From an uncultured Chloroflexia bacterium (GTDB lineage: Bacteria; Chloroflexota; Limnocylindria; Limnocylindrales; CSP1-4), in contig CAVVAV010000002.1 of NCBI GenBank assembly GCA_963746405.1, positions 908,414 to 972,413 of the forward strand: DNA of 64,000 bases. The letters are read 5' to 3'. This document shows positions 12,424 through 15,122 of the stretch, piece by piece; position 1 is the first letter of the stretch; each line of letters starts with the position of its first letter. The notes beneath the pieces were generated by a model, which saw nothing but the letters and a program-made list of their open reading frames with translations, had not been told where the DNA came from and made no database searches. The translations under genes were made by a program, and so were the position numbers.

Positions 12424-13650
12424 CTACGCCCGGGCGGCGACCTTCTGGCGGTTGAACAGCCCGAATGCGGGCTTGGGGTTCGGCGAGGAGACCGGGGTCC
12501 CCATGATCCGGTCGGCGAGGGCGTCGAAGTCCTCGCTGATCTTCTCGCGCGGGAACATCTCGATCACCGTCCGCCCCTCGTTCGCGGCGCGGACGAAGAG
12601 CAGCCCACCCGATCGGAGGAGCGCGAGTGACGGCATGCCGACGGTCCGCTCCATGTCGGCGACGGACACGCCGCTATTCGCCCGGTTGACGACGAGGGCG
12701 AGGCGATCCCGGATCCCGAGCTCGGTCGCGAGGTCGGCCAGCTGGACGGCCGCCCGGATGGCGGGCACGTCCGGGGTCACGGGCACCAGGATGCGGTCGG
12801 CGACCTCGAAGATCGCCTGATTGAGCGGGCTGTACGAGGGGTGGAGGTCGATGACCACATAGTCGAACCCACGGCGGGAGGCCTGGATGAGGGCGCCCAC
12901 CCGGGCCGGGTCCAGGATCTCGGTGCCGAGCGGGGACGACGTCAGCGACACGACGCGCAGGCCCGACGGATGCGCCGCGGCCAGGTCGGCCAGGGTCTCG
13001 ACGGGTCCGCCGTCGGGCTCGTCAGTCCAGCTGTCGAGGACGGTCCGGACCTCGTTCATGCCCAGCGACGTCGTCACGTGCCCGGTCACCGTGTCGGCGT
13101 CGAGCAGGAGGACGCTCTGGCCCTTGCGGATCTGAAGCGTCGAGGCGAGGTTCGTCGCGATGGTCGTCTTGCCGACCCCACCCTTGGGGTTGAACACGGC
13201 GATGACCGTTGCCGGGTGGATCCAGCCGTCCGCCTCGATCGGGCCGCTCTGCAGGATCGGGCCGGAGCCGTCATCGACGGTCTGGCTTCGGATGCACATC
13301 GCCTCGACCCGCCAGCGCAGGGACTCGGCGGAGTACGGGCGTGTGAAGTATTCGTCCTCGACGCTGCCGCCACGCGAGCCGAGCCCCTCGAGGGTTCGTG
13401 GTGAGACGACCATCAGGGCCGGGATTGCCCGGCCGCCGTCGCGGAGCATCCCGTAGAACTCGAGGGACGTATCGAAGTCGGTCTCGCCGTCGAGGATCGC
13501 GACCGCCACATTGCGGTCACTCCCGAGCAACGCCTCGAGCTCGTCGGGGTGGCCGACGGAGATGACCGTGAAGCCCGCCTCCTTGAGCTCGGCCGCGACC
13601 GGGACGGACTCCTCGGTCGGCAGCGCGATGGCGACGCTCGGTCGAGCCAC
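12424..13650 (-). CDS. ParA/MinD-type P-loop ATPase with N-terminal receiver-like domain (CpaE/TadZ-like)
   Basis: The N-terminal ~120 aa have a CheY-like fold pattern. This is followed by a deviant Walker A (FNPKGGVGKTTIATNLAS) and LLLDADTVTGHV. Confidence 0.65.
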   Translation of the reverse strand: MARPSVAIALPTEESVPVAAELKEAGFTVISVGHPDELEALLGSDRNVAVAILDGETDFDTSLEFYGMLRDGGRAIPALMVVSPRTLEGLGSRGGSVEDEYFTRPYSAESLRWRVEAMCIRSQTVDDGSGPILQSGPIEADGWIHPATVIAVFNPKGGVGKTTIATNLASTLQIRKGQSVLLLDADTVTGHVTTSLGMNEVRTVLDSWTDEPDGGPVETLADLAAAHPSGLRVVSLTSSPLGTEILDPARVGALIQASRRGFDYVVIDLHPSYSPLNQAIFEVADRILVPVTPDVPAIRAAVQLADLATELGIRDRLALVVNRANSGVSVADMERTVGMPSLALLRSGGLLFVRAANEGRTVIEMFPREKISEDFDALADRIMGTPVSSPNPKPAFGLFNRQKVAARA

Positions 13651-13652
13651 GG

Positions 13653-15122
13653 TCAGCCTTCGTTCTCTGGATCGCGGGCGGTCACGGTGAGCTCACCCTC
13701 GGCCTCGGCGGTGACACGCGCCCCGAAGCCGGGGAGCGTCGTCAGCGCGTCCTTGAGGACGATGCCTGGATCGTGAGCGACAGCGAAGAGGAACTCGCCA
13801 TCGGGGCCGGACGAGACGCCGACCGAATGCACGCCCGCGACGCGAGAGAGCTGGCGCTTGAAGCCGGCGATGCTCGCGACGCTGACGAGACCGGTGACGA
13901 CGACGCGGGTGTTGTGCGCCTCGGTGGCGTGGCTCTCCTCCGGGACCAGGCCGGCCAGCCGGGCAGCGAGGGCGTCGTCGCCGATGACGGTGATCTCTTC
14001 CTCGGCGGAGCTCTCCTCCGGTGTGAAGGCGGCGGCCTCGGCCTCCGCCGCGGCGAAGTCCGGGGTCAGGGCCAGCGCGTCGAGGCGCGGGTCCGACTCG
14101 TCGGGAGCGGCTGTCTCAGGCTCGGCGCCGGCCTCGACCGGCTCGTCGTCGGTCATGGTGTGCGCTTCGGCGGCGACGTCGCCGACCGTCTCGGTCTCGG
14201 TCTCGGTCTCGGTCTCGGTCGTGGGAGCGTCCTCAGGCGCTGCCGTGGACTCGGTCTCGGCGACCGGCTCCGGGCTTGTCTCGGGGGAGGACTCGACGAC
14301 GACCGCTCGCTCGGCGAGGGTCTCGTCGGTCTCGGTCGTCGCCGCGTCGGCCAGCCTGGCCTCCGTGGCGTCATCGGTATCGAACGGCGGCGGCTCGGGC
14401 AGGCTCTCGGCCATCGCCGCGAAGCGGGTGGCGTCCTCTTCGGCGATCAGGCGCTGGAAGAAGTCGGCCATCTCGGCCTCGAAGGCGTCGACGCGGCGCT
14501 GGACCCGCTCGATGCGTCCCTCGATGTCGGCCGCGTGGGCCTCGATCTCGCGCTCGAGCCGGGCCTTGCGGTGGGTGATGCGCTCGTCGGTCTCCTCGCG
14601 GATCCGGGCGATCTCGGCCTTGGACCACTCGCGGATGGAGGCGACGTCGTCGTCGGCCTGCTTGCGCAGCTCGGTCGCCTCGTTGGCGGTCGTCGCGTGG
14701 ATGGTCTCGATATAGGCCTTGGCCTCCCCGGCGAAGCGAGCGAGGGTATCGGCCTTGGCGGTCTCGGCGGCGCCCTGCATGGCCCGGGTGAGATCGGCCA
14801 TGAACTTGTTGGGCTTGCGGCCGGACGAGCGTGCCTCGGTCGCGGGCCCCGAGTCGTCGACGGCCGGCGACGGGTCGGCGGTCGAGCCGGTGCCGTGCGG
14901 CTGGTCGCCATCCGACGGGGCCGATGCCCCGTCGTCGACGGTGGCCATCTGGTCATTGGCGGAAGGCGCAGCGTCGATCATGTCGGGCGTCTCGATCTCC
15001 TGGTCGTGGGGGAGGGCTTCGCCGACAGGCGCGTCGCCGGTCGTCTCGGCGCGGGCTTCGGACTCACTTCGATCCGCGCTCCACGGGAGACGGAAACCTG
15101 GCTTGGCATCGGTCGTGGCCAT
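13653..15122 (-). CDS. acidic coiled-coil protein with ETETETETE repeat and C-terminal globular domain (uncharacterised)
   Basis: ATG at 15122 gives MATTDAKPGF. The protein is strongly acidic (Asp/Glu/Ala/Thr-rich). A predicted coiled-coil spans REWSKAEIARIREETDERITHRKARLEREIEAHAADIEGR. The C-terminal ~100 aa are hydrophobic and Gly-rich and look folded. The stop lies 3 nt before the start of the upstream ATPase gene. Confidence 0.55.
   Translation of the reverse strand: MATTDAKPGFRLPWSADRSESEARAETTGDAPVGEALPHDQEIETPDMIDAAPSANDQMATVDDGASAPSDGDQPHGTGSTADPSPAVDDSGPATEARSSGRKPNKFMADLTRAMQGAAETAKADTLARFAGEAKAYIETIHATTANEATELRKQADDDVASIREWSKAEIARIREETDERITHRKARLEREIEAHAADIEGRIERVQRRVDAFEAEMADFFQRLIAEEDATRFAAMAESLPEPPPFDTDDATEARLADAATTETDETLAERAVVVESSPETSPEPVAETESTAAPEDAPTTETETETETETVGDVAAEAHTMTDDEPVEAGAEPETAAPDESDPRLDALALTPDFAAAEAEAAAFTPEESSAEEEITVIGDDALAARLAGLVPEESHATEAHNTRVVVTGLVSVASIAGFKRQLSRVAGVHSVGVSSGPDGEFLFAVAHDPGIVLKDALTTLPGFGARVTAEAEGELTVTARDPENEG

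Follow-up and report, generated by a model that had tools for sequence, protein, structure and literature searches.

Background

ATPases of the ParA/MinD superfamily organize chromosomes, division sites, organelles, and motility machines, and many "orphan" members of the superfamily have no known partner or cargo. ParA-family ATPases are captured by the acidic polar hubs PopZ and HubP, in which a disordered, acidic chain carries a client-binding N-terminal peptide and a folded or oligomerizing C-terminal part. The partners of ParA/MinD ATPases show diverse architectures, but as a general rule it is a short N-terminal segment, disordered and with basic residues that are essential, that contacts and activates the ATPase, and this segment is attached to a domain for cargo binding or self-interaction (PMC7993993; 10.1101/2022.06.09.495121). 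PomZ, for example, is activated by the N-terminus of PomX, where a short conserved peptide contains two basic residues that are essential, and the coiled-coil part of PomX self-assembles into a scaffold (PMC7993993). In this paper, a candidate pair of this kind is described from an uncultured Chloroflexia bacterium (GenBank assembly GCA_963746405.1). The pair lies in a stretch of 64,000 nucleotides (nt) of contig CAVVAV010000002.1 (positions 908,414 to 972,413 of the forward strand), here called the window, whose numbering is used throughout. It consists of the following two genes:

13653-15122, minus strand: partner gene, open reading frame (ORF) with translation, 489 amino acids (aa) plus stop codon
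12424-13650, minus strand: ATPase gene, GTG start, 408 aa, a receiver-like domain followed by a ParA/MinD ATPase domain

In our judgment, there is about an even chance that the two genes encode a ParA/MinD-superfamily ATPase and its cognate partner, forming a self-contained positioning or localization module specific to the class Candidatus Limnocylindria. This is an uncultured class with genomes of about 2.4 Mb and 69% GC (PMC10608941). The partner has the sequence features of the partners of ParA/MinD ATPases, namely an adjoining gene, a disordered N-terminus with the basic residues K/R7, R11, and R18, and further domains. By its layout it fits the template of an ATPase-activating partner, which by analogy would make it a member of a functional class and not of a homology family. 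The undescribed partner family and the occurrence of a receiver-fused ParA/MinD ATPase outside a Tad context are new here.

The nearest functional analogues of the pair are PomX/PomZ, McdB/McdA, and the PopZ/HubP hubs, and none of these is homologous to it. As in the PomX/PomY/PomZ system of Myxococcus xanthus, which positions the division site, an orphan ParA/MinD ATPase is combined with a large partner that is part disordered and part coiled coil. However, no sequence homology to PomX was detected; PomX is rich in Ala and Pro and not hyper-acidic, it is without a ferredoxin-like C-terminal domain, PomZ is without a receiver domain, and a second activator like PomY is not evident at this locus. 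The ATPase differs from those of McdA/McdB (carboxysome positioning), ParA/ParB, MinD/MinE, and PpfA/TlpT in its extra receiver-like domain, and the partner has no homology to McdB, ParB, or MinE. The scan of window ORFs revealed no carboxysome, chemotaxis, parS, or min genes. With PopZ and HubP, the partner shares a strongly acidic, largely disordered chain, a short conserved N-terminal peptide, and a folded C-terminal part, but no homology: PopZ has about 180 aa and a helical C-terminus, HubP resides in the membrane and has LysM and FimV domains, and no operon is known to join either gene to that of its ATPase. The initial annotation of this locus regarded an acidic disordered partner as the signature of positioning systems; this is better seen as an analogy (to PopZ, HubP, and PomX) and is not diagnostic. 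FleN/FlhG and MinD resemble the ATPase in having a conserved short C-terminal tail after a spacer, but no flagellar genes, minC, or minE were seen in the window. TadZ/CpaE proteins, including the actinobacterial Ssd type, are alike in joining an atypical receiver to a deviant-Walker-A ATPase within about 400 aa and in working with scaffold or hub proteins; in contrast, the ATPase described here has no tad neighbors and its partner is not a known Tad-locus component.

Conservation and co-evolution of the gene pair

The partner gene starts with the ATG at 15122, which is preceded 9 nt upstream by GAGGA; this start is confirmed because homologues of 465-524 aa align from residue 1. The junction of the two genes reads GAAGGC TGA CC GTG, so that 2 nt separate the partner stop from the ATPase start, and a Shine-Dalgarno-like GAAGG lies within the last codons of the partner, ahead of the ATPase GTG. 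Upstream of the pair, moaA is divergent, and downstream a gene of 214 aa, which is DUF6812-like, converges on the ATPase gene; partner and ATPase therefore form a two-gene transcription unit. Scans around the operon found no sigma-70-type promoters or intrinsic terminators. The initial annotation had placed the two adjoining genes correctly, with a partner of 490 aa and a gap of 3 nt in place of 489 aa and 2 nt. The shared operon that it implied is real, and it is conserved and co-evolving across the whole class.

All 68 genome loci that include the start of the partner gene have the partner immediately upstream of the ATPase. The gap between the two genes is 1-56 nt in nearly all orthologous loci, and the adjacency was also found in every divergent sub-clade inspected. 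In a genome scan, the best 80 loci all belonged to Limnocylindria-type metagenome-assembled genomes, a few of which are labeled as other phyla and occur in short-contig bins. Starting from L087, the most divergent ATPase, a further search led to a sister sub-clade with the same synteny. The names attached to homologues are Candidatus Limnocylindrales or Chloroflexota, and the top matches of all three word-indexed protein searches are close relatives. As far as these searches reach, the pair is confined to one uncultured class. Nothing on this locus was found in the literature on Limnocylindria together with pili, Tad, or cell division.

Because the whole neighborhood is syntenic, adjacency alone is weak evidence of a functional link, and the case for linkage is therefore built on how closely the two genes are spaced and on the covariation of their rates. 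The latter was assessed by a mirror-tree comparison of five neighboring genes in 45 genomes, with partial correlations controlling for MoaA, AcsA, and the DUF gene. The distance matrices of partner and ATPase correlate with r 0.925 and partial r 0.689, and the partial r of all nine other pairs among the five genes is at most 0.33. The partner evolves at about 1.6 times the rate of the ATPase (mean p-distance 0.44 vs 0.27), with the change concentrated in its acidic linkers. Even in comparison with the nearest public genome (CAVTMH010000003.1, L003), the ATPase is 98-99% identical and the partner only 93%. Across the class, the ATPase is 65-99% identical and is far better conserved than the partner.

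The convergent DUF6812-like gene (11703-12347, plus strand) gave a borderline match of 26.1 bits against a cut-off of 27.1. It adjoins the ATPase in all of the approximately 80 Limnocylindria loci, including L087, where AcsA is missing, and it is absent together with the ATPase at the one partner-only locus, P0388. Its distance matrix has a partial correlation of 0.33 with the partner and 0.07 with the ATPase.

The partner protein

The partner has an isoelectric point of 4.2 and a net charge of -67, and it is rich in Ala, Glu, Thr, and Asp. It gave no Pfam, NCBIfam, or PDB family match at a significant level. PDB sequences were searched with two profiles, one built from the full-length partner and one from the C-terminal domain, and neither search returned anything significant. 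The Pfam and NCBIfam comparisons also gave no ParB, ribbon-helix-helix, or helix-turn-helix match. Homologues are numerous: one search returned more than 100 full-length sequences at 54-93% identity, and 495 clusters of a library of 50%-identity representatives match the partner at E<1e-30. One architecture is common to these clusters, and the same plan was seen in every divergent member inspected. Full-length homologues at 41-93% identity show invariant blocks between variable linkers. Together with a structure model obtained by AlphaFold2 with an alignment of 50 sequences, the following parts can be recognized:

15069-15122, minus strand: N-terminal peptide, residues 1-18, MATTDAKPGFRLPWSADR, consensus M-A-[TSQ]-T-[DE]-x-[KR]-x-G-F-R-L-P-W
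14379-14816, minus strand: helical block, residues 103-248, conserved, predicted by AlphaFold2 with DSSP
14094-14378, minus strand: acidic linker, residues 249-343, net charge -28, variable and disordered
14188-14220: microsatellite, a perfect 6-nt tandem repeat (GTCTCG)x5.5 that encodes an (ET)5 run in the acidic linker
13941-14093, minus strand: two linear motifs, residues 344-394, DPRLxALGLTPDFAAAEAEAAAF and EEIxVIxDDALAARLAGLVP
13656-13916, minus strand: C-terminal domain, residues 403-489, ferredoxin-like beta-alpha-beta-beta-alpha-beta-beta fold predicted by AlphaFold2

All 63 partner orthologues compared share an invariant G9, F10, R11, L12, P13, and W14 in the N-terminal peptide and have K or R at position 7. 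The peptide is predicted to be disordered, with a predicted local distance difference test score (pLDDT) of 44-45, and is therefore not folded back onto the partner's own domains. The GFRLPW peptide was sought in the other proteins of the window and none was found outside the partner. A variable acidic region follows, in which a weaker motif can be seen at approximately residues 40-51.

The helical block is modeled as a single unbroken helix at residues 106-227 (122 residues; window 14442-14807; pLDDT 95-98), beyond which lie a short helix (231-239) and the motif LPEPPPFD. The hydrophobic period of the long helix is 3.67, which corresponds to an 11/3 hendecad with a 3-4-4 pattern, and 6 of 1000 shuffles reached the observed power. 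A classical heptad coiled coil was rejected, there being no power at period 3.5. Many exposed residues of the block are invariant across 50 sequences, such as W166, E170, R173, R175, and R185. A weak Pfam Apolipoprotein match (E 0.0055) also falls in this block.

The acidic linker is poorly conserved (majority frequency 0.29; pLDDT <50) and varies among homologues in both length and sequence. The (ET)5 run within it is not conserved in partner homologues; the repeat looks like a slippage-prone length polymorphism, since the run of the closest homologue is shorter. The two linear motifs stand out with conservation of 0.73 and 0.65, compared to 0.28 for their flanks, and weak, low-confidence helices are predicted in this region (pLDDT 44-62 per 10-residue block).

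The C-terminal domain was predicted at pLDDT 89-96 in two independent AlphaFold2 runs and has the invariant core GLxSVxxIAxFKR...V..G. A Foldseek comparison of the domain with the PDB returned generic HMA, S6, or ACT folds only, the best at E 0.011-0.024 and none at or below 0.001. For the HMA resemblance, the target-normalized template modeling score (TM-score) is 0.55-0.67 with E at least 0.02, and the PDB profile E-values are 0.1-0.9. Identity as an HMA domain was rejected: the loop GLVSVASIAGF has no cysteine, and the metal-binding CxxC is missing.

From these results it can be seen how far the first description of the partner holds. Its compact C-terminal globular domain appears as a confident predicted fold at residues 403-489. 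The long helical segment described as a coiled coil is present, with a hendecad period of 3.67 and not the heptad period of 3.5. The (ET)5 repeat exists as a 6-nt tandem repeat of 5.5 copies, without conservation.

The ATPase and its relationship to TadZ, MinD, and ParA

Three parts of the ATPase can be distinguished:

13276-13650, minus strand: receiver-like domain, residues 1-125, degenerate, with weak response-regulator profile matches
12496-13215, minus strand: ATPase domain, residues 146-385, ParA/MinD type, matching Pfam AAA_31, CbiA, ParA, and MipZ
12427-12474, minus strand: C-terminal tail, residues 393-408, KPAFGLFNRQKVAARA, basic and aromatic, after a variable Pro-rich spacer

The ATPase domain carries the deviant Walker A KGGVGKTT at residues 156-163 (window 13162-13185), the switch-I-type sequence DADTVTGHV at residues 184-192, and VVIDLHP as Walker B; KGGVGKTT, D184/D186, and D268 are invariant among ATPase orthologues. 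Pfam matches (cut-off in brackets) are AAA_31 at 68.8 bits (27), CbiA at 41 (25.4), ParA at 40.3 (27.1), and MipZ at 24.8 (20.7). Signature lysine, switch-I aspartates, Walker B, and profile matches thus all place the protein in the ParA/MinD deviant Walker A superfamily, and all NCBIfam equivalogs remain below cut-off. The closest solved structures by sequence are FleN/FlhG (E 2e-16), Soj, a Chlorobium ParA, and MinD, the last with weaker E-values. PADLOC gave no defense-system match and one P-loop-only match at E 4e-4.

Evidence that residues 1-125 are a degenerate receiver-like domain is weak but consistent. This part matches NCBIfam NblR (E 1e-4) and TctD (E 7e-4), as well as PDB RegX3 (E 8e-4 over profile positions 12-145), and its hhalign comparison with CheY gave E 0.005 and a probability of only 7%. 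In the CheY register, D54 falls on D57, S83 on T87, and R104-P105 on K109-P110. D54, at the phospho-acceptor position, is invariant, and S83 and R104-P105 are also kept. The CheY alignment starts after the acidic DD pair; a gapless back-count puts A9/L10 at CheY D12/D13, and by this extrapolation beyond the alignment the pair appears to be replaced by LPxxE. Neither Pfam Response_reg nor TadZ_N (at E <=0.1) was detected in the ATPase. The receiver-like domain is under constraint, and hence functional, because its mean pairwise identity of 0.72 is near the 0.76 of the ATPase domain.

In the C-terminal tail, R401, K403, and R407 are invariant, together with F396 or F399 (two alignments differ). 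Tail identity is 0.66, compared to 0.39 for the Pro-rich spacer. A hydrophobic-moment scan found the tail not clearly amphipathic. It could bind membrane, DNA, or protein.

JGI and NCBI annotations name the orthologues CpaE ("pilus assembly protein CpaE"), a label that the evidence does not support. According to a rival explanation, which we consider unlikely, the ATPase serves as TadZ/CpaE for a Tad (Flp) pilus whose other genes are elsewhere in the genome, and the partner is a localizing polar hub comparable to PodJ of Caulobacter or RomR of Bdellovibrio. The layout of a receiver-like N-domain followed by a ParA/MinD ATPase in a protein of about 400 aa is indeed TadZ-like, and TadZ has scaffold or hub proteins among its known binding partners (10.64898/2026.07.08.737194). 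Moreover, among 72,556 plasmids the best-scoring hit, which is also the top annotated plasmid protein, is a Pseudarthrobacter ATPase (92 bits, 32% identity) located in a complete Tad locus of the order Flp-TadE-TadG-CpaB-ATPase-CpaF-TadB-TadC. The switch-I pattern D-x-D-T-x-x-G is common to both proteins, and the patterns of MinD and ParA differ from it. However, the match with this Tad-locus TadZ covers the ATPase domain only, and the N-domains do not align. The other plasmid proteins likewise align to the ATPase domain only, at 35% identity or less.

The genomic context also argues against a Tad protein. No tad, flp, cpa, rcp, or pilus gene was found in the 64 kb, in a search that used Pfam on nearly all ORFs of at least 100 aa supported by GC content at third codon positions (GC3) and syntenic-locus annotation for most of the rest, one ORF at about 35.9-37.2 kb in an oligopeptide ABC-transporter operon being unscanned. 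Flanks of 6-8 kb around more than 80 orthologous loci were likewise free of tad, cpa, flp, and rcp genes. TadZ has been described as found uniquely in Tad systems (10.64898/2026.07.08.737194), and with no tad gene nearby, a defining feature of TadZ is therefore not seen locally. At the level of profiles, TIGR03815 CpaE_hom_Actino (Ssd) matched only the ATPase domain and, with 78.2 bits, stayed below its cut-off of 154.45. The solved TadZ structure, entry 3FKQ, was not among the PDB sequence matches at E <=0.01. A crude neighbor-joining tree of 16 sequences (244 columns, 20-35% identity), including three Tad-locus proteins that are not themselves monophyletic in it, joined the Limnocylindria clade with four small ParA/AAA partition ATPases at 96% bootstrap, and not with Tad-locus TadZ/CpaE or MinD. 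The closest relationship found is with small plasmid ParAs, which are 35% identical to the ATPase.

Identity as MinD was rejected: TIGR01968 gave 64.5 bits against 212.9, the ATPase is only 22% identical to the two MinDs compared, and the window showed neither minC nor minE. Identity as a ParA partition ATPase was also rejected, with NF041546 ParA_partition at 88.8 bits against a cut-off of 180 and an adjoining partner that has no ParB, ribbon-helix-helix, or helix-turn-helix match.

The initial annotation had assigned the ATPase a CpaE/TadZ-like architecture of an atypical receiver followed by KGGVGKTT. This architecture is borne out, with the reservation already expressed about the receiver. 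The statement that no tad or pilus genes are nearby is confirmed for the 64 kb. The position of the ATPase inside bona fide CpaE, which had been named as a reason to abandon the proposal, was not found, as far as the CpaE_hom_Actino cut-off and a crude tree can tell.

Proposed function and competing explanations

If the pair is a positioning or localization module, its parts can be assigned provisional roles. The ATPase probably forms ATP-sandwich dimers, because the signature lysine, P-loop, switch-I aspartates, and Walker B are intact, and such dimers would bind a surface, either nucleoid or membrane. The partner would act as a multivalent adaptor, its hendecad helix making a dimer or a higher oligomer; this oligomer is suggested by the AlphaFold2 single-helix model and the 11/3 periodicity. 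By analogy with ParB, MinE, PomX, and McdB, the free N-terminal peptide [KR]xGFRLPW may dock on the ATPase and stimulate ATP hydrolysis. The ferredoxin-like C-terminal domain and the two linear motifs might bind cargo or cause the partner to self-assemble as a hub or condensate, and the acidic linkers would serve as spacers. The degenerate receiver domain may be a regulatory or docking surface, as has been proposed for the atypical receiver domain of TadZ. The obvious candidates for the cargo are the division machinery or a polar hub.

A more far-reaching version of this proposal, which we regard as doubtful, is that of an undescribed ParA/MinD positioning system confined to Limnocylindria in which a two-component signal would gate the ATPase through the receiver domain with its phospho-acceptor aspartate. 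As the adaptor, a polyanionic scaffold with a hendecad helix would then form a hub or condensate, or it would compete with DNA for the ATPase, and the system may substitute for division-site control of the Min, Pom, or MipZ type.

Several observations weigh against a dedicated ATPase-partner module. The pair is part of a 10-gene neighborhood whose block PNP-MoaA / partner-ATPase / DUF-AcsA-MscS keeps its synteny throughout the class. The distance correlations carry no formal p-value, and the greater range of the faster-evolving genes could inflate the value for partner and ATPase. The tree is a crude neighbor-joining tree of 16 taxa in which the Tad-locus sequences form no supported clade. The N-terminal peptide, with only 2-3 basic and two acidic residues and a net charge of about +1, is less cationic than classical activating peptides, and no cargo candidate is encoded nearby. 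Finally, the divergent partner P0388 lies between MoaA and AcsA with no ATPase or DUF6812-like gene beside it. P0388 is known from a single 7.3-kb contig of JGI sample 3300043331, and it has a long Ser/Gly-rich N-terminal linker. Its lineage could have lost or relocated the ATPase.

Some of these observations could be accounted for if the two genes were co-transcribed but functionally separate, the partner being a structural or scaffold protein such as a cytoskeletal or division coiled coil and the ATPase working with another, unlinked partner. P0388 keeps the N-terminal motif without an adjoining ATPase, adjacency within a syntenic neighborhood could be inherited and not selected, and the partner evolves much faster than the ATPase. 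Nevertheless, the partial correlation of 0.69 between partner and ATPase, against at most 0.33 for other neighbor pairs, and the spacing of 1-56 nt in nearly all loci both argue for a link. An invariant disordered N-terminal peptide is also a feature of ParA/MinD partners, and P0388 rests on one metagenome contig of about 7 kb, so that the ATPase could lie elsewhere in that genome. Functional separation is thus decidedly unlikely in our view. The idea that only the ATPase is real, the partner "gene" being spurious and a product of low complexity in DNA rich in GC, has practically no probability left: although the window has about 70% GC, long ORFs occur in several frames over the stretch of the pair, and the product has a biased composition with a microsatellite, this idea is already refuted by the conservation pattern of full-length homologues with invariant blocks, in addition to a GC3 of 0.87 in the partner frame, two domains predicted at pLDDT 90-98, and a Shine-Dalgarno-like sequence before the ATG, and an absence of the partner from other genomes that retain the ATPase, which the initial annotation had named as a reason to abandon the proposal, is contradicted by its presence at 68 of 68 loci that hold the start of the partner gene.

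Other genes in the window

Several genes apart from the pair were also recorded. A cytoplasmic sensor kinase of 1834 aa (49567-55071, plus strand) has six GAF domains, approximately four PAS domains, and HisKA_3/HATPase, and it is followed by a LuxR-type response regulator (55634-56299, plus strand). The region 21122-24930 holds an 889-aa AAA/TPR signaling protein, whose homologues in related loci add a guanylate-cyclase domain and HTH_77; two small cyclic-nucleotide-binding proteins adjoin it and are divergent (23894-24415, minus strand; 24448-24930, plus strand). Cell-wall remodeling genes are represented by a SpoIID-domain protein (42288-43637, minus strand) close to an SLT-type transglycosylase (44487-45329, plus strand); to our knowledge, there is no sporulation in this lineage. 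GC3-supported ORFs without any Pfam match are located at 1977-4244, 61223-62362, 59114-59737, and 62469-63041, all on the plus strand. The largest of these, of 755 aa, overlaps a DUF885 gene and may be miscalled.

Significance

With this locus, an orphan receiver-fused ATPase gains a candidate partner from a family without a Pfam, NCBIfam, or PDB match, and the pair is found at every examinable locus of the class. The host class comprises abundant uncultured Chloroflexota of soil and freshwater. As a practical consequence, the CpaE annotation of the orthologues needs correction. If positioning proves to be its function, the pair would extend the known activating partners by a further, architecturally distinct type, in which an aromatic-basic N-terminal peptide is combined with a hendecad helix, a polyanionic linker, and a ferredoxin-like domain, and it would offer a tractable ParA-type ATPase with a built-in signaling domain outside Tad pili.

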